Assembly (NCBI RefSeq): GCF_024502345.1
Contig: NZ_JALDNN010000001.1
Strand: one strand, 5' to 3'
DNA from: Escherichia coli
GTDB lineage: Bacteria; Pseudomonadota; Gammaproteobacteria; Enterobacterales; Enterobacteriaceae
DNA: 64,000 nucleotides
Part shown: piece after piece, positions 12,052 to 23,203 of the stretch
How positions within the stretch are numbered: the first letter of the stretch is position 1
How the letters are laid out: each line of letters begins with the position of its first letter
Translations under genes and position numbers: made by a program
The notes under the pieces: model-generated
What the model was told of the DNA's origin: nothing
The model's database searches: none
The model's input: only the letters and a program-made list of their open reading frames with translations

Positions 12052-14553
12052 TTGGCGGCGCTATCGCCGCCTTTCTTCAAATATTTATCAGGTATGGACA
12101 CCGTGAATATTTATCGACTCTCTTTTGTATCCTGCCTGGTTATCGCGATGCCTTGCGCATTGGCGGTCGAATTCAACCTTAATGTTCTCGATAAATCAAT
12201 GCGCGACCGCATTGATATTTCATTATTAAAGGAAAAAGGAGTCATTGCTCCCGGTGAGTATTTTGTTAGCGTTGCGGTAAATAATAACCAAATCAGTAAC
12301 GGGCAAAAGATTAACTGGCACAAAAATGACGATAAAACCATTCCGTGCATCAATGATTTACTGGTCGATAAATTTGGCTTAAAACCTGAAGTCCGTCAGT
12401 CGTTACCATTGATAAATCAGTGCGTCGATTTTAGCTCCCGACCTGAAATGCTCTTCAATTTCGATCAAGCCAATCAGCAACTGAATATTAGTATTCCGCA
12501 AGCCTGGCTGGCGTGGCACTCAGAAAACTGGACCCCACCGTCCACATGGAAAGAAGGTGTCGCCGGTGTCCTGATGGATTACAACTTGTTTGCCAGCAGC
12601 TACCGCCCACAGGATGGCAGCAGCAGCACTAATCTTAACGCCTATGGAACAGCCGGAATCAACACGGGGGCATGGCGCTTACGCAGTGATTATCAGTTGA
12701 ATCAGACTGATAGCGATGATAACCATGAACAGTCAGGCGAAATATCACGTACCTATCTTTTTCGCCCGTTACCGCAATTAGGTTCAAAATTAACCCTCGG
12801 CGAAACGGATTTTAGTTCCAATATTTTCGACGGTTTTTCTTATACCGGCGCGGCACTGGCAAGTGACGATCGAATGTTGCCATGGGAACTACGCGGCTAC
12901 GCCCTACAAATTAGCGGTATTGCACAGACCAATGCCACGGTGACGATCAGTCAATCAGGCCGCGTCATTTACCAGAAAAAAGTCCCACCAGGCCCATTTA
13001 TCATTGACGACCTTAATCAGTCTGTTCAGGGCACACTGGATGTCAAAGTGACGGAAGAAGATGGTCGGGTGAACAATTTCCAGGTTTCGGCAGCATCGAC
13101 GTCCTTCCTGACTCGTCAGGGACAGGTTCGCTATAAACTGGCCGCGGGTCAGCCACGGCCCTCCATGTCACATCAAACTGAAAATGAAACCTTTTTTAGC
13201 AATGAAGTTTCCTGGGGGATGCTGTCAAACACCTCGCTGTACGGCGGCCTGCTGCTTTCTGGTGATGACTACCATTCTGCCGCAATGGGTATTGGGCAAA
13301 ATATGCTGTGGCTTGGTGCGCTGTCGTTTGATGTCGCGTGGGCCAGTAGCCATTTTGATACTCAGCAGGACGAGCGGGGCTTAAGCTACCGTTTTAATTA
13401 CAGCAAACAAGTGGATGCCACTAACAGCACGATTTCCCTCGCCGCTTATCGTTTCTCCGATCGTCATTTTCACAGCTACGCCAACTATCTGGATCACAAA
13501 TACAACGACAGCGATGCGCAGGACGAAAAACAGACGATCAGCTTATCCGTGGGCCAACCGATTACCCCACTAAACCTCAATCTTTACGCCAACCTGTTGC
13601 ATCAAACCTGGTGGAATGCAGACGCCTCCACGACCGCCAACATCACAGCAGGTTTTAATGTTGATATTGGTGACTGGAGAGATATCTCTATTTCGACGTC
13701 ATTCAATACAACCCATTACGAAGATAAAGATCGCGACAACCAGATTTACCTGTCGATTTCGCTCCCCTTCGGTAATGGTGGTCGGGTTGGTTATGACATG
13801 CAAAACAGTAGCCACAGCACCACACACCGCATGTCGTGGAACGATACACTGGATGAACGTAATAGCTGGGGCATGTCTGCCGGACTGCAATCCGACCGTC
13901 CTGACAATGGAGCCCAGGTGAGCGGTAACTATCAGCACCTGAGTTCAGCGGGTGAGTGGGATATTTCTGGTACCTATGCCGCCAATGATTACAGTTCCGT
14001 CAGCAGCAACTGGAGCGGTTCTTTCACCGCAACCCAATATGGTGCAGCGTTTCATCGCCGCAGCTCCACCAATGAACCACGCCTGATGGTCAGTACCGAT
14101 GGCGTGGCAGATATTCCGGTTCAGGGCAATCTCGACTACACCAACCATTTTGGCATTGCGGTGGTGCCGTTGATTTCCAGTTACCAGCCTTCCACCGTGG
14201 CGGTGAACATGAATGGCTTACCCGACGGCGTAACAGTTGCAGAAAACGTTATCAAAGAAACGTGGATTGAAGGCGCGATAGGTTACAAATCACTGGCTTC
14301 CCGTTCCGGTAAAGACGTTAACGTCATCATTCGCAACGCCAGCGGTCAGTTCCCTCCCCTCGGAGCGGATATCCGCCAGGATGACAGCGGCATTAGCGTG
14401 GGGATGGTTGGCGAGGAAGGACATGCCTGGTTAAGCGGAGTCGCTGAAAATCAAAAGTTTACCGTGGTCTGGGGTGATAGCCAGCATTGCTCGCTCCATC
14501 TTCCTGAACATATGGAAGACACCGAAAATCGCCTGATTTTACCTTGTCATTAA
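12052..14553 (+). CDS. ybgQ: fimbrial outer-membrane usher protein
   Basis: 833-aa ORF (true start may be the internal ATG near 12094, MDTVNIYRLSFVSCLVIAMPCALA signal peptide); PapC/FimD-like usher size and organisation. Confidence 0.9.
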   Translation: MAALSPPFFKYLSGMDTVNIYRLSFVSCLVIAMPCALAVEFNLNVLDKSMRDRIDISLLKEKGVIAPGEYFVSVAVNNNQISNGQKINWHKNDDKTIPCINDLLVDKFGLKPEVRQSLPLINQCVDFSSRPEMLFNFDQANQQLNISIPQAWLAWHSENWTPPSTWKEGVAGVLMDYNLFASSYRPQDGSSSTNLNAYGTAGINTGAWRLRSDYQLNQTDSDDNHEQSGEISRTYLFRPLPQLGSKLTLGETDFSSNIFDGFSYTGAALASDDRMLPWELRGYALQISGIAQTNATVTISQSGRVIYQKKVPPGPFIIDDLNQSVQGTLDVKVTEEDGRVNNFQVSAASTSFLTRQGQVRYKLAAGQPRPSMSHQTENETFFSNEVSWGMLSNTSLYGGLLLSGDDYHSAAMGIGQNMLWLGALSFDVAWASSHFDTQQDERGLSYRFNYSKQVDATNSTISLAAYRFSDRHFHSYANYLDHKYNDSDAQDEKQTISLSVGQPITPLNLNLYANLLHQTWWNADASTTANITAGFNVDIGDWRDISISTSFNTTHYEDKDRDNQIYLSISLPFGNGGRVGYDMQNSSHSTTHRMSWNDTLDERNSWGMSAGLQSDRPDNGAQVSGNYQHLSSAGEWDISGTYAANDYSSVSSNWSGSFTATQYGAAFHRRSSTNEPRLMVSTDGVADIPVQGNLDYTNHFGIAVVPLISSYQPSTVAVNMNGLPDGVTVAENVIKETWIEGAIGYKSLASRSGKDVNVIIRNASGQFPPLGADIRQDDSGISVGMVGEEGHAWLSGVAENQKFTVVWGDSQHCSLHLPEHMEDTENRLILPCH

Positions 14554-16508: not shown

Positions 16509-17555
16509 ATGCCAGTTTTGCAGTGGGGAATGTTATGTGTGCTATCACTTCTCCTTTCTATTGGTTTCCTCGCGGTACATCTCCCGGCGGCATTATTACT
16601 TGGGCCGATGATCGCCGGGATCATCTTTAGTATGCGCGGGGTTACCCTGCAACTCCCCCGCTCCGCTTTTCTCGCCGCGCAGGCCATTCTTGGCTGCATG
16701 ATTGCGCAAAACTTGACCGGTTCGATCCTGACCACGCTGGCGGTTAACTGGCCGATTGTGTTAGCTATTTTACTGGTGACGTTGCTTTCCAGCGCTATCG
16801 TGGGATGGCTACTGGTGCGCTATAGCTCACTGCCCGGAAATACTGGTGCCTGGGGCTCCTCGCCTGGCGGGGCGGCGGCAATGGTCGCGATGGCGCAGGA
16901 TTACGGCGCAGATATCCGCCTGGTGGCGTTTATGCAGTATCTGCGAGTGCTGTTTGTCGCGGGGGCCGCAGTTCTGGTCACGCGAATGATGCTGGGCGAT
17001 AACGCTGAAGCGGTTAACCAGCATATCGTCTGGTTCCCGCCAGTGAGCATTAATCTCCTGCTTACTATTTTGCTCGCGGTCGTTGCCGGTACAGTGGGAT
17101 GCCTGCTGCGTCTTCCTTCCGGCACGATGCTCATCCCGATGCTGGCGGGCGCAGTGCTCCAGTCTGGTCAGCTCATCACCATCGAACTACCGGAATGGCT
17201 GCTGGCGATGGCGTATATGGCAATTGGCTGGCGGATTGGTCTTGGTTTCGATAAACAAATCTTACAGCGGGCACTACGCCCGCTACCACAAATCCTGCTG
17301 TCGATTTTTGCTCTGCTGGCTATTTGTGCGGGTATGGCGTGGGGACTGACCCGGTTTATGCACATTGATTTTATGACTGCCTACCTCGCCACCAGCCCCG
17401 GCGGGCTTGATACCGTGGCGGTCATCGCCGCAGGGAGCAATGCCGATATGGCGCTCATTATGGCGATGCAAACCCTGCGCCTGTTCAGTATTTTGCTGAC
17501 AGGGCCTGCCATTGCGCGGTTTATTTCAACCTATGCGCCGAAACGTACGGCCTAG
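16509..17555 (+). CDS. abrB: AbrB-family membrane protein (putative regulator of aidB expression)
   Basis: ORF-track 374 aa trimmed to [30 protein letters not shown] (348 aa); polytopic membrane protein. Confidence 0.88.
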
Positions 17556-18343
17556 TGCTGGCAGCCCGAACACCAGTAAAACGGGCGAGATGACAGCGTG
17601 GTTTTCTCAATGATGCCGCCACAGCGTTCGCACAGTTCGCCATCACGATGAAAAACCTTAAAGCGAAACAGCGCCCCATGATGCTTATTCTCATCCACCT
17701 GCCCCCGCGTAGCGTAAGAAAACCGAGGAATATCCAGTAACGCGTGTGCGAGTGCATCCAGTTGCGCCGCATTGAGGTCTTTCGCTTTATGATTTCCAGT
17801 CAACCCAACCTGCCAGAGGATCTCCACACGCAAATAATTGCCAAGCCCAGCCAGAAACGCCTGATCGAGCAGTAATCCAGCAAACTGACGGTTACGAAAG
17901 CGCGGCGACAATAACCGTTCTTTCACCACCTCCGGCGTCAGATTCGGATCCAGCACATCGGGACCAACGCGTTGTAAAAACGGATGCGTGGTCAGTTGTT
18001 CCGGGGTCAACATCTCAATATCCGAGGCGCTATAAAGCAGAATGGTTTTGTCAGCCGTTTGCAGTTTTACCCGCAATACTCGCGTGGTCTGCGGCTCTTC
18101 GCCGGTATCAACCACGCGCCAGACGCCATAAAGCTGATTATGGCTGTAGAGCGTTAAGTCGTTGGAAAAATGAGTTAACAACGCCTTACCACGCGTTTCC
18201 ACATGGGTAACGTGTTGACCGATAAGTTGTGATTGATAAGTTTTTAACTGCGGGAAGGCAAACCAGACATCAGTTAGTGGTTTGCCTTTGATCGCCGCCT
18301 CCAGGTTATCCGCTGCACGGCGGATCTCCGGGCCTTCAGGCAT
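17552..18343 (-). CDS. nei: endonuclease VIII (DNA glycosylase/AP lyase)
   Basis: 263-aa [29 protein letters not shown]... (Fpg/Nei N-terminal PEGPE motif) with C-terminal zinc finger CxxC...CxxC. Confidence 0.96.
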
Positions 18344-18378
18344 GGTGATATCCTTTTTTCATTCTTTATTAATCGGGG

Positions 18379-19113
18379 TTATGCTGCGACAACAATCCCC
18401 TTTTCGGCAAATGCAGAGCGTAGTCGGCGGGCGAACGCCAGTGCGTGCTCGCCGTCGCCATGCAGGCAGACCGTTTGCGCCGTGACCGTTGCCCATTCGC
18501 CGGTGATACTTTTGACTCTGCCGTGTTGCACCATCTCCAGCGTTTGCGCCAACGCCTGTTCTTCGTTTTCAATCAACGCGCCTGGCTGATTTCGCGGCAC
18601 CAGCGAGCCGTCAGCCTGATAACCGCGATCGGCAAACACTTCCTCGCGCGTTGTCAGGCCATATTGCTTGCCTGCACGAATCAGCTCGCTTCCTGCCAGC
18701 CCAACTAGAACCAATGCTGGATCGCAAGCGTATACCGCTCTGGCGATGGCGTCTGCCAGTTGTGCTTCTTTCGCCGCCTGGTTGTACAACATGCCGTGCG
18801 GTTTGACATGACACATTACGCCGCCTTGCGCACGGGCAATCGTTGCCAGCGCGCCAATTTGATACAGCGTCTGGGCGTAAACGGTTTCTGGCGGCAGCTG
18901 CATAGCGCTGCGACCAAAATTTTCCCTGTCGGGAAAACTCGGATGAGCGCCAATCGCGACACCATTTTTTATTGCTTCACGCACGCAAGCCTGCATGGTT
19001 TGCGCATCGCCTGCATGAAATCCACAGGCAATATTGGCAGAGGAAACCAGCGTTAATAGCTCTGCGTCGCTGGTGCAGCCTTCGCCCAGATCGGCGTTCA
19101 GGTCAATTTTCAT
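18379..19113 (-). CDS. pxpA: 5-oxoprolinase subunit A (LamB/YcsF family)
   Basis: 244-aa [39 protein letters not shown]...; formerly ybgL. Confidence 0.93.
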
Positions 19114-20035
19114 TGTGCAGCCGCCACGCTAATTGTTCGAAATAACGTTGCTGATCTTGCCGCGCTTTCAGTGCCTCTTCCAATGAACACTGGACAAAAT
19201 GAATCGGCTGACCGAGCGGAATTTGCGCCAGATGGTACATATCAGCCTCAATGATACAGGCAATACGCGGGTAACCACCGGTGGTCTGTGCGTCGTTCAT
19301 CAACACAATGGGCTGCCCGTTATGCGGCACCTGCACCACGCCCGGTAACAAACCGTGAGATAACAGTTCGCGATCGGTGGTGCGTTTTAAAATTTGCCCC
19401 TGTAAGCGATAGCCCATGCGGTTACTTTGCGAGCTAAGCTGCCAGGGCGAACGCCAGAATGCATCCTGCGAGGCGCGATCGAACTCATGATATTCCGGCC
19501 CCGGCAAGGCGCGAATGCGGTTGCCCCACAGCAGCTGTTTAACGCCCTGCGCTTCCATAAAATCACGCTTCGATTTGCCAATCGGGAGTCGGTCACCATC
19601 CTTCAGTAAACGGCCTTCCAGCCCGCCAATCCCCACTTTGAGATCGGTGCTGCATGACCCCATTACCGGCGGAACATCAATACCACCCGCGACCGCCAGA
19701 TAACTGCGCATCCCGTGCTGCGGGCGTTTAAGCGTTAAACGCTGGCCTGCTTTCATCGGCAATCGCCAGCCGGTCCAGACGGCATTATCATCCAGCCGCG
19801 CTTCGCAACCGGCACCCGTCAGAGCAAACCACCCATCAGTTTCGAACTCAACCGTTAACTGACCGAGCGTGATCTCCAGCGCGGGGGCATTGGCGTCATT
19901 ACCCACCAGTAGGTTAGCAATGCGTAACGCGGGCATATCCAGTGCGCCGCAGTGGCTGATACCCGACTGGCGAAAACCGTGACGACCGCCATCCTGCACA
20001 GTGGTATACATGCCCGCACGAATAATCTTCAGCAT
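19103..20035 (-). CDS. pxpC: 5-oxoprolinase subunit C (allophanate hydrolase subunit 2-like)
   Basis: 310-aa [29 protein letters not shown]...; formerly ybgK; overlaps pxpA and pxpB ends. Confidence 0.93.
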
Positions 20036-20685
20036 ACCCCCTCCTTTTGCGGTACAAAGCGCACGCTGTCTCCCGGACGTAATAAGATGGGTTTGTCACG
20101 CGCCGGATCAAACAGGCTGAGAGAGGTATGACCAATCAACTGCCAGCCACCCGGCGTTGCCAGCGGATAAACACCAGTCTGCGGCCCGCCGATCCCGACA
20201 GAACCTGCCGGAACGAGCAAGCGCGGTTCAGCGCGCCGTGGCGTGTGTAGTTGTTCCGGCAAACTCCCGAGATACGGGAAGCCCGGTTGAAAACCTAAAA
20301 ACCAGACCACGTATTCCACGGAGGAGTGCAATTCAACAACCTGTTTTTCGCTCAACCCGCAATGCGCCGCGACCACCGCCAAATCCGGTCCGCCTGCACC
20401 ACCGTAAACCACCGGAATTTCAATAAAGCGAGACTCAGGTTCCAGGGCCTCGCTCTCCTCCCACCAGCGTTGCAAACGCTCTATGGCATCCAGCGCCAGC
20501 GACTCAGGATTACGCAAAATCACCGTGATATTGTTCATGCCGGGAATGGCTTCAACCACATTCGGCATATCCACCAGACGCTGCGCCAGTCGCCAGATCC
20601 GTTTCTGGCTAGCCAGCGTCACCGGCGGTTCCAGTTCCAGCACTACCGCCGTTTCACCTATCAGATAACAACGCGCTCGTTGCAC
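20029..20685 (-). CDS. pxpB: 5-oxoprolinase subunit B (allophanate hydrolase subunit 1-like)
   Basis: 218-aa [24 protein letters not shown]...; formerly ybgJ. Confidence 0.93.
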
Positions 20686-20707
20686 TTTCGATCCCTCTGA
20701 TTATTCG

Positions 20708-21451
20708 TTATGCAGGATTAGGAATATCAATAAAGGTCACATCAAGATCGGTATTTTCATTCAGCCACTCGCTCAACGCGCGAATACCACCGCGTTCAGT
20801 GGCATGGTGACCCGCAGCATAAAAATGCAATCCCTGCTCGCGGGCTGAATGAATGGTCTGTTCAGAAACTTCGCCAGTAATAAAAGCATCCACGCCAAAA
20901 CGCGCGGCGCTATCGATAAAACTTTGCCCGCCGCCCGTGCACCAGGCAACACGCTGGACCACCTCAGGTCCGGTATCGCCACACCATAACGGCTTACGTC
21001 CCAGGCGCGCTTCAATCCAGGAAGCCAGCTCCAGTCCCGGCACAGGCATGGTCAGCTCACCCCACGGCACCAACGGCTCAATTTCGCCCATGACCGTGAT
21101 CCCCAGTAACGCCGCCAGCTGTGCGTTATTGCCCAGCTCAGGATGTGCGTCAAGCGGCAAATGCCAGCCATACAGGTTGATATCATTCGCCAGCAACGTT
21201 TTTAAACGGTTACGCTTCATTCCGCGAATGACCGGAGACTCTCCTTTCCAGAAGTAGCCATGATGCACAATGACCGCATCCGCGCCCAGACGCACTGCCT
21301 CATCGAGCAAAGCCTGGCTGGCGGTGACACCGGTAACAATTTTTTGCACCGTCTCTTTGCCTTCCACCTGCAAACCATTCGGCGCGTAATCACTAATCGC
21401 CGCGCTGTTCAGTTTTTCGTTAATCAGTTGTTCCAGTTCGGTGTTTTTCAT
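20708..21451 (-). CDS. ybgI: Nif3-family metal-binding protein (GTP cyclohydrolase 1 type 2 homologue)
   Basis: 247-aa ORF MKNTELEQLINEKLNSAAISDYAPNGLQVEG...; NIF3/YqfO family. Confidence 0.93.
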   Translation of the reverse strand: MKNTELEQLINEKLNSAAISDYAPNGLQVEGKETVQKIVTGVTASQALLDEAVRLGADAVIVHHGYFWKGESPVIRGMKRNRLKTLLANDINLYGWHLPLDAHPELGNNAQLAALLGITVMGEIEPLVPWGELTMPVPGLELASWIEARLGRKPLWCGDTGPEVVQRVAWCTGGGQSFIDSAARFGVDAFITGEVSEQTIHSAREQGLHFYAAGHHATERGGIRALSEWLNENTDLDVTFIDIPNPA

Positions 21452-21538
21452 CTTCGCGCCTTCCGTATTCTGATAGCTACACCGTTAACATAGCGTTACC
21501 TCGCCTGTTCGTCGATAGCCAATCTTTTGACATATTAA

Positions 21539-23203
<1,665 letters not shown>

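Follow-up and report, generated by a model that had tools for sequence, protein, structure and literature searches.

The window, a 64,000-nucleotide stretch of an Escherichia coli contig (NZ_JALDNN010000001.1), carries on its minus strand the densely packed genes ybgI, pxpB, pxpC, pxpA and nei (Table 1). The original prediction had described the first four of these as a tightly packed operon, and its coordinates for the four open reading frames are exact to the base. RefSeq draws the same boundaries in MG1655 and in an identical E. coli chromosome. The dense packing is real, but the count of four is one short: the left boundary of the proposed operon truncates the unit, because the same-strand gene nei lies only 35 nt after pxpA. 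This overlooked gene is the terminal gene of the unit. Its product exceeds the cut-off of the Nei model NF007763 (502 bits against 252) and contains the PF01149 and PF06831 domains, and a RegulonDB-derived table lists the operon as nei, ybgI, ybgJ, ybgK and ybgL (PMC4448311).

Table 1. Features of the ybgI–nei locus and its upstream region, in window positions.
Feature	Position	Strand	Description
nei	17552-18343	minus	263 aa, endonuclease VIII
pxpA (ybgL)	18379-19113	minus	244 aa, 5-oxoprolinase subunit A (LamB/YcsF)
pxpC (ybgK)	19103-20035	minus	310 aa, 5-oxoprolinase subunit C
pxpB (ybgJ)	20029-20685	minus	GTG start, 218 aa, 5-oxoprolinase subunit B
ybgI-pxpB spacer	20686-20707	minus	22 nt, Shine-Dalgarno GAGGGA, too short for terminator plus promoter
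ybgI	20708-21451	minus	247 aa, NIF3/DUF34 dinuclear-metal protein, YbgI type
Divergent control region dtpD(+)/ybgI(-)	21452-21721		270 nt, holds the operon promoter(s)
Candidate proximal ybgI promoter	21487-21515	minus	-35-like TCGACG (21515-21510), 17-nt spacer, -10-like TATGTT (21492-21487)
Perfect 12-bp inverted repeat	21599-21632		TATTTATGCAAT-N10-ATTGCATAAATA, arms 100% complementary

The junctions were read directly in the sequence. The start of pxpC overlaps the stop of pxpB by 7 nt (ATGCTGA, preceded by AGGAGG) and the start of pxpA overlaps the stop of pxpC by 11 nt (ATGAAAATTGA), both lengths being as predicted. The 7-nt overlap recurs in most of the relatives' pxpB/pxpC junctions that crude ORF calls could resolve. 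The gene for Nei has its own Shine-Dalgarno sequence (AAGGA), and its stop codon overlaps that of abrB by 4 nt, tail to tail. The E. coli K-12 operon ybgI-pxpB-pxpC-pxpA-nei (b0710-b0714) is identical in gene order, in protein lengths (247, 218, 310, 244 and 263 aa), in its junctions (22-nt gap, 7- and 11-nt overlaps, 35-nt gap) and in the 270-nt intergenic region facing dtpD. The window differs from the K-12 locus in alleles only. Of 5,426 complete E. coli genomes, 5,422 contain the block; most are 95-99% identical over 4.4 kb, and strain 873.10 matches the window at 100%.

Curated Pfam and NCBIfam equivalog models agree with the earlier assignment of one Nif3-family protein and three oxoprolinase subunits. 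YbgI matches PF01784 over residues 1-246 of 247 (E 1.6e-66) and exceeds the cut-offs of TIGR00486 and NF008064, scoring 532 bits against 414. Solved structures exist for all proteins of the locus, and those matched here are 1NMO/1NMP for YbgI (full length, residues 1-247, E 9.9e-169), 5DUD for PxpC (YbgK; residues 1-310, E 4.2e-215) and 1XW8 for PxpA. Ladner et al. reportedly described the dinuclear metal site of YbgI in 2003, with H63, H64, H97, D101, H215 and E219 as its ligands. Among 47 diverse homologues of 35-58% identity, drawn from a search of a representative library, H64, H215 and E219 are invariant and H63, H97 and D101 are at least 90% conserved. The legend to Figure 1 of a survey of the DUF34 family is a further source for this ligand assignment (PMC8469502). 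The PII-like/COG3323 insert is absent from YbgI; the insert-bearing SA1388 (370 aa) aligns only over residues 26-119. The protein thus resembles the YbgI subgroup represented by 1NMO/1NMP along its full length, with the di-metal residues kept and no difference noted, and by sequence it is assigned as a di-metal NIF3/DUF34 protein of an uncharacterised family. NF008064 carries the name 'type 2 GTP cyclohydrolase I', which is not to be read as a function of YbgI, since ybgI fails to rescue a folE mutant in a published complementation (PMC8469502). Two literature mentions of 'ybgI' were set aside, one being a typographical error for ygbI and the other coming from an unrelated localisation screen.

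The three genes that follow belong to the families of PxpABC, here as separate proteins, each above a curated equivalog cut-off: PxpB matches PF02682 (CT_C_D; E 4e-73) and TIGR00370 (355 bits, cut-off 145.55), PxpC matches PF02626 (CT_A_B; E 1.1e-94) and NF045499 (594 bits, cut-off 500), and PxpA matches PF03746 (LamB/YcsF; E 2.7e-94) and NF003812 (513 bits, cut-off 378). The genes are contiguous and overlapping, and their sole neighbours are ybgI and nei. YbgJ and YbgK are reported to form a complex (PMC3790201). In the portions of PMC13274462 and PMC11932112 that relate the work of Niehaus et al. (2017), PxpABC converts 5-oxoproline to glutamate in an ATP-dependent reaction, and loss of pxp genes leads to a build-up of 5-oxoproline. 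By homology, pxpBCA are assigned as the genes for this ATP-dependent 5-oxoprolinase.

The 5-oxoprolinase loci of other bacteria, Bacillus subtilis pxpA/B/C, Corynebacterium glutamicum pxpTABC with pxpR, and Haemophilus influenzae pxpABC, contain the same three families in a cluster. Their order is pxpA-B-C rather than the pxpB-C-A of E. coli; they lack a NIF3 gene and carry a transporter, a dedicated regulator or both. Genes for DUF969, DUF979 and pyroglutamyl peptidase (pcp), which accompany pxpBCA in many other Enterobacterales, are gone from the E. coli cluster. Homologues of CT_C_D, CT_A_B and LamB/YcsF also stand in a row on Rhizobium pRL10, a Ralstonia megaplasmid, a Lactiplantibacillus plantarum plasmid and a Natrinema plasmid. 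In these biotin-dependent carboxyltransferase or urea amidolyase-type clusters, identity to PxpC is 35-43%, and genes for biotin carboxylase and biotin carboxyl carrier protein (BCCP) are included. The window has neither, and the lack of such partners beside the E. coli pxp genes sets them apart from the urea-amidolyase-type paralogues. None of the four has a Nif3 neighbour.

The original prediction held that co-transcription of ybgI with the oxoprolinase genes is conserved. We surveyed the surroundings of ybgI by a genome scan with a 14-sequence YbgI alignment, which reached gammaproteobacterial orthologues down to 52% identity, and added a few spot checks. Neighbours were counted by tblastn, because ORF maps sometimes chose antisense shadow ORFs in GC-rich loci. 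A YbgI orthologue was present in 80 species, and in 28 of them pxpB lay downstream of ybgI; all 28 belong to four families of Enterobacterales (Enterobacteriaceae, Erwiniaceae, Pectobacteriaceae and Yersiniaceae). No pxp gene lies within 10 kb of ybgI in any of 47 informative gammaproteobacterial loci outside these families, and the linkage is missing from the sampled loci of Morganellaceae, Pasteurellaceae, Vibrionaceae, Alteromonadales, Aeromonas and Pseudomonadales. Spot checks of distant YbgI homologues gave no pxp neighbour either, two of the four contigs being too short to inform, and the pxp COG numbers do not appear in the text or tables, the top-20 list included, of the DUF34 neighbourhood survey (PMC8469502). 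In this sample the linkage is thus conserved only narrowly, with 0/47 loci outside the four families and 0/4 pxp clusters of other phyla showing it.

Even within the four families the arrangement varies. The ybgI-pxpB spacer measures 11-43 nt in Enterobacteriaceae only (15 of 15 loci with pxp, with YbgI 81-97% identical) and 103-418 nt elsewhere, and in Rahnella an opposite-strand gene separates ybgI from pxp. The loci of five species (L008, L014, L016, L031 and L033) are without pxpA. Each of the six Yersiniaceae loci has the promoter-like motif TTGACA-N15/16-CGCATAA once, upstream of pxpB, and it occurs nowhere else in 89 loci; terminator-like hairpins with U-tracts follow ybgI in some loci of this family (Serratia and Yersinia). 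The original prediction had named, as evidence that would count against it, a promoter of their own for pxpBCA and a terminator after ybgI: in silico, candidate elements of this kind are present in Yersiniaceae, and the E. coli junction gave no terminator-like hit and is too short for both. What stands of the earlier claim is that co-transcription is likely in E. coli and that tight spacing is family-wide in Enterobacteriaceae. Selection for co-expression would agree with the retention of this spacing throughout the family.

The neighbourhoods of ybgI in relatives suggest how the E. coli arrangement arose. In Vibrionaceae, ybgI abuts gltA(-)-sdhCDAB in 11 of 12 loci; Photorhabdus and Providencia have gltA within about 1-2 kb after ybgI and no pxp. 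Genes for DUF969, DUF979 and pyroglutamyl peptidase occur in 11 loci, where they follow pxpA and precede either nei or gltA. The pxp module thus has the look of an insertion, specific to this lineage, that came to separate ybgI from gltA, and from the outgroups we infer by parsimony that the direction was insertion rather than loss elsewhere. The inserted 5-oxoproline module, found between ybgI and gltA in the four families, would ancestrally have been pxpB-pxpC-pxpA-DUF969-DUF979-pcp, usually followed by nei. In Enterobacteriaceae the spacer would then have contracted to 11-43 nt, which would have left pxp expression reliant on read-through from ybgI, and E. coli would later have lost DUF969-DUF979-pcp and gained dtpD upstream.

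The same neighbourhoods bear on a different partnership, in which ybgI would belong functionally with the flanking DNA-damage genes (ybgA-phrB upstream and nei downstream) and pxp would be an inserted passenger. The RefSeq and MG1655 product name is 'radiation resistance protein YbgI', PhrB and MutY are among the operon partners of DUF34 proteins (Reed et al. 2021, PMC8469502), and in Enterobacterales without dtpD, phrB shares the strand of ybgI and ends at most about 20 nt ahead of it. Two Alteromonadaceae (L063 and L068) likewise have phrB close to ybgI, and one locus without pxp (L015) has nei directly after ybgI. We nevertheless regard this reading as doubtful: neither phrB nor nei is near ybgI in most loci outside Enterobacterales, nei is missing from the loci of Yersinia, Erwinia, Acerihabitans and Rosenbergiella, the phenotype on radiation reportedly stems from a screen, and local synteny alone would be expected to give the same pattern.

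Transcription of the unit would begin in the 270-nt region held in common with the divergent dtpD. Two blocks of this region are invariant across 11 sequences from six genera. The elements T.TCGACG and GCTAT.TTA, which correspond to the candidate proximal promoter, are invariant in Escherichia, Citrobacter, Kluyvera, Superficieibacter, RIT691 and Pseudocitrobacter, with variable flanks; the candidate scores under the 9/12 threshold of our sigma-70 consensus scan. For comparison with published positions in U00096.2 we applied a conversion offset that we take to be +777. Sigma-70 ChIP-seq and primer extension locate two sites ahead of ybgI, at 742,030 and 741,874 in U00096.2 (PMC3798280). With this offset they fall about 20 and 176 nt before the ybgI ATG, near window positions 21471 and 21627. 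By this mapping the published start is about 9 nt further downstream than the candidate TATGTT element predicts. The perfect inverted repeat is unique in the window, where 0.02 would be expected by chance, and its right arm with the adjacent bases is invariant in six genera. It is a candidate operator of the divergent region. An Rfam scan of positions 17000-22000 matched nothing.

Within the E. coli block, co-transcription of ybgI with pxpBCA is likely, because no junction fits a terminator and there is no internal sigma-70 consensus match. Specifically, no terminator-like site was detected at any of the four junctions (22-nt gap, 7- and 11-nt overlaps, 35-nt gap), and the consensus scan returned no minus-strand match in 17300-21900, a scan that likewise failed to pick up the ybgI promoters for which there is experimental support. 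The primary transcript-mapping study of the operon is said to be that of Gifford and Wallace in 2000 (NAR 28:762). We also considered that the block is not one unit and that pxpBCA and/or nei are transcribed also, or mainly, from promoters within ybgI or pxpA. Relatives with a promoter-like motif at pxpB make independent expression the state in some families, and the consensus scan is insensitive, such that weak promoters inside ybgI or pxpA could escape it. This is unlikely, however, given the empty scan of the minus strand, the listing of the operon as a single unit (PMC4448311), and the failure of the Yersiniaceae motif to find a counterpart near E. coli pxpB beyond chance; its sole match, with two mismatches, lies 440 nt upstream.

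Taken together, the data favor, at a probability of about 0.9, the reading that the locus is the characterised five-gene unit b0710-b0714, in which ybgI and pxp are juxtaposed by history and not by shared biochemistry. From the spacing, and from a literature report available second-hand, the five genes would be expressed from one polycistronic mRNA. The 7- and 11-nt ATG/stop overlaps would couple translation of pxpC and pxpA to the preceding gene, an arrangement that would fit a stoichiometric PxpB-PxpC complex plus PxpA, and PxpABC would return spontaneously formed 5-oxoproline to glutamate.

The functional link at which the original prediction hinted persists as a weak hint only, since the adjacency is confined to four families and is broken in Yersiniaceae and Rahnella. 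That YbgI is tied to the 5-oxoprolinase, for instance as an accessory, maturation or metal-loading factor for PxpA or PxpBC whose co-transcription reflects the tie, finds some encouragement in the 11-43 nt spacing retained in all 15 Enterobacteriaceae loci with pxp and in the proposal that members of the DUF34 family act as metal chaperones or insertases, their operon partners often being metal-dependent (Reed et al. 2021, PMC8469502), but it is very improbable given that the linkage is missing from the 47 informative loci outside the four families, that promoter and terminator-like elements interrupt it in Yersiniaceae and an opposite-strand gene does so in Rahnella, that ybgI is kept without pxp in L015, Photorhabdus and Providencia, that Nif3 is absent from the pxp clusters examined in other phyla and from those reported for C. 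glutamicum (pxpTABC, PMC13274462) and H. influenzae (pxpABC, PMC11932112), and that the DUF34 survey text and tables do not contain the pxp COG numbers (PMC8469502). A highly speculative extension would have Enterobacteriaceae lose, on spacer collapse, the pxpB promoter still present in Yersiniaceae, so that the ybgI promoter would come to drive 5-oxoprolinase and Nei; this change might have been kept because YbgI, the proposed metal insertase, serves the enzymes of the operon (possibly PxpA and Nei, should they require metal loading), which would make the operon one damage-control unit.

The operon is already known at textbook level, and the significance of the present analysis lies mainly in its correct annotation. 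For YbgI, the NCBIfam label is not reliable at face value. Because the ybgI-pxp pairing is limited to the close relatives of E. coli, it is a weak clue to function, and the E. coli adjacency makes poor guilt-by-association evidence for the role of NIF3/DUF34 proteins. The locus may also offer an example of operon assembly, in which a complete metabolic module would have been inserted and the module's own promoter then lost.

The genes ybgI, pxpB, pxpC and pxpA (the last three also named ybgJ, ybgK and ybgL) follow one another closely: a 22-nt spacer containing GAGGGA separates the ybgI stop from the pxpB GTG, the pxpB stop overlaps the pxpC ATG by 7 nt (ATGCTGA, with AGGAGG just before it), and the pxpC stop overlaps the pxpA ATG by 11 nt (ATGAAAATTGA). 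These junctions were read directly from the sequence, so the coordinates and overlaps of the original prediction are exact. Its gene identities also hold: all four proteins match Pfam and NCBIfam models well over the curated cut-offs, RefSeq gene boundaries agree in strain 873.10 and MG1655, and full-length matches were found between YbgI and PDB 1NMO/1NMP, YbgL/PxpA and PDB 1XW8, and YbgK/PxpC and PDB 5DUD. The four genes are as predicted, but the unit was incomplete, since nei, on the same strand with its own Shine-Dalgarno sequence, lies 35 nt after pxpA and had been left out. The window is E. coli DNA: strain 873.10 matches the 4.4 kb around the genes at 100% identity, and among 5,426 complete genomes of the species 5,422 carry 80% or more of this segment. 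At the far end, the stop codons of nei and the convergent abrB overlap by 4 nt (17552-17555), with no terminator-like site between the two coding regions; each transcript would thus enter the other gene antisense. Separately, PF01784 and PF02682 occur together in a singleton protein of 425 aa (P0002, from a single NCBI record); a frameshift or an assembly error spanning the 22-nt spacer probably accounts for this apparent YbgI-PxpB fusion.

Features of the locus (window coordinates) and of the Yersiniaceae loci (each in its own coordinates, prefixed L)
Feature	Coordinates	Strand	Basis
nei, endonuclease VIII	17552-18343	minus	Pfam/NCBIfam; fifth gene
pxpA	18379-19113	minus	ORF, 244 aa
pxpC	19103-20035	minus	ORF, 310 aa
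pxpB	20029-20685	minus	ORF, 218 aa, GTG start
ybgI	20708-21451	minus	ORF, 247 aa
TCGACG-17 nt-TATGTT, invariant block upstream of ybgI	21515-21487	minus	11-sequence alignment
Perfect 12-bp inverted repeat, dtpD/ybgI region	21599-21632		alignment block around repeat
TTGACA-N15/16-CGCATAA	L017 10815-10842		motif site
TTGACA-N15/16-CGCATAA	L021 10831-10858		motif site
TTGACA-N15/16-CGCATAA	L024 11069-11096		motif site
TTGACA-N15/16-CGCATAA	L025 11071-11098		motif site
TTGACA-N15/16-CGCATAA	L028 12425-12453		motif site
TTGACA-N15/16-CGCATAA	L029 12429-12457		motif site

The ybgI-pxpBCA-nei locus is already known and ordinary, and a RegulonDB-derived table lists nei, ybgI, ybgJ, ybgK and ybgL as an operon (PMC4448311). 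PxpABC is cited as an ATP-dependent 5-oxoprolinase (in PMC13274462 and PMC11932112), and PxpB and PxpC are described as forming a complex (PMC3790201; PDB 5DUD). A single mRNA would run from the dtpD-ybgI region through nei, with pxpC and pxpA translationally coupled via the overlaps; of the pxpB/pxpC junctions that ORF calls resolved, most show the same 7-nt overlap. No terminator-like site was found in any junction of the block, and the minus-strand matches within coding sequence (11, vs 6.0 ± 2.8 in shuffled sequence) are at chance level. A sigma-70 consensus scan of the minus strand over 17300-21900 returned no site, and no Rfam family matched between 17000 and 22000. Promoters upstream of ybgI have been located by sigma-70 ChIP-seq and primer extension, at 742,030 and 741,874 in U00096.2 (PMC3798280).

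When aligned, 11 dtpD-ybgI intergenic sequences representing six genera share two invariant blocks. One, TCGACG-17-TATGTT, is a plausible proximal ybgI promoter. The other surrounds the inverted repeat TATTTATGCAAT-N10-ATTGCATAAATA, a candidate operator for a regulator, which occurs once in the window and whose right arm is invariant over the six genera. With a presumed offset of +777, the sites at 742,030 and 741,874 lie ~20 and ~176 nt ahead of the ybgI ATG; on this conversion, the published start at 742,030 falls ~9 nt downstream of the position predicted from TATGTT. Between the distal start and ybgI lies a weak terminator-like hairpin, GCGTCTTTTGGCGT with a T-rich tail (21551-21564, minus strand), within the chance expectation of the terminator scan.

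To see how far the ybgI-pxp linkage is conserved, diverse YbgI homologues were gathered and a subset was aligned. The E. coli proteins, together with neighbouring proteins from relatives, then served as queries against 80 species loci (±10 kb, from a species-representative genome set). The linkage, predicted to be conserved, is so within four Enterobacterales families: 28 of the 80 loci have pxpB downstream of ybgI and in the same orientation, and all of these are from Enterobacteriaceae (15), Yersiniaceae (6), Pectobacteriaceae (4) or Erwiniaceae (3). A taxonomy look-up confirmed the families of three genera that are less familiar. Another 51 loci, 47 of them informative because their downstream flank extends to 3 kb or more, lack any pxp gene; they come from Photorhabdus, Providencia, Pasteurellaceae, Vibrionaceae, Aeromonas, Alteromonadales, Shewanella, Orbaceae, Alcanivorax, Stutzerimonas and some MAGs. 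The ybgI-pxpB spacer measures 11-43 nt in Enterobacteriaceae; among the other three families, 11 loci have 103-418 nt, and in two Rahnella species it is ~1.79 kb and holds an opposite-strand MFS transporter gene. In the Enterobacteriaceae locus of Klebsiella sp. BIGb0407, ybgI is followed after 87 nt by nei, with no pxp genes. The subunit gene pxpA is cleanly absent from two Enterobacteriaceae loci, with nei 10-20 nt after pxpC, and, as a locus-level observation, from a Mangrovibacter locus and two Rosenbergiella loci (together L008, at 12339-12353, L014, L016, L031 and L033).

Separate transcription of ybgI and pxpBCA is indicated in silico in Yersiniaceae but not in E. coli. Each of the six Yersiniaceae loci has a single copy of TTGACA-N15/16-CGCATAA, in every case ahead of pxpB, and the motif is absent elsewhere in the 89 loci; it has no counterpart in E. 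coli. It combines a perfect -35 with CATAAC or CATAAA at a distance of 17-18 nt. Hairpins lie just past the ybgI stop: that of Serratia plymuthica is ~15 bp long (-23 kcal/mol) and followed by U5, and those of Serratia silvae and Yersinia have U-tracts that are weaker or displaced. In that family, motif and hairpins thus supply, in silico, the promoter and terminator between ybgI and pxpBCA that the original prediction named as evidence against itself.

The loci also suggest a history. In Vibrionaceae gltA(-)-sdhCDAB adjoins ybgI directly (11 of 12 loci), and in Photorhabdus and Providencia gltA lies ~1-2 kb beyond ybgI without pxp; gltA is the landmark found beyond nei in Enterobacterales. 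In 11 loci (L002, 13120-15488, and 10 others) pxpA is separated from nei or gltA by genes for DUF969, DUF979 and pyroglutamyl peptidase (pcp), recognized by Pfam, and five further loci retain pcp as the only one of these three. The pxp genes, two membrane proteins and a pyroglutamate-releasing peptidase form a coherent 5-oxoproline module; E. coli and E. albertii, where DUF969, DUF979 and pcp are missing, have lost them. Parsimony, with the outgroups as reference, suggests that an Enterobacterales ancestor gained the module (usually together with nei) by insertion between ybgI and gltA, and that the ybgI-pxpB spacer later collapsed in Enterobacteriaceae.

On its other side, ybgI faces dtpD in the window (21722-23203), here compared with loci L005, L010, L012, L013, L015, L016 and others. 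In Enterobacterales loci without dtpD, phrB (with ybgA) has the same orientation as ybgI and ends at most ~20 nt ahead of it, so dtpD is a later insertion between them in the Escherichia-Citrobacter-Kluyvera group; without it, ybgA-phrB-ybgI-pxp may form one long same-strand array. This proximity, seen also in two Alteromonadaceae, and the RefSeq name 'radiation resistance protein YbgI' make a repair-related role for YbgI a reasonable rival reading, although the case is mostly local synteny. The NCBIfam name, 'type 2 GTP cyclohydrolase I', is contradicted by failed folE complementation (PMC8469502).

PxpC homologues on Rhizobium, Ralstonia, Lactiplantibacillus and Natrinema replicons are clustered with PxpB- and PxpA-like genes, often with biotin carboxylase and BCCP, and none of these clusters holds a NIF3 gene; the pxpTABC/pxpR cluster of C. 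glutamicum and the pxpABC cluster of H. influenzae likewise differ from E. coli in lacking NIF3, and distant YbgI representatives have unrelated neighbours. The observation behind the original prediction is confirmed and its interpretation partly supported. The one modestly new point is comparative: the adjacency of ybgI and pxp is a historical trait at the family level and gives little evidence on YbgI function.
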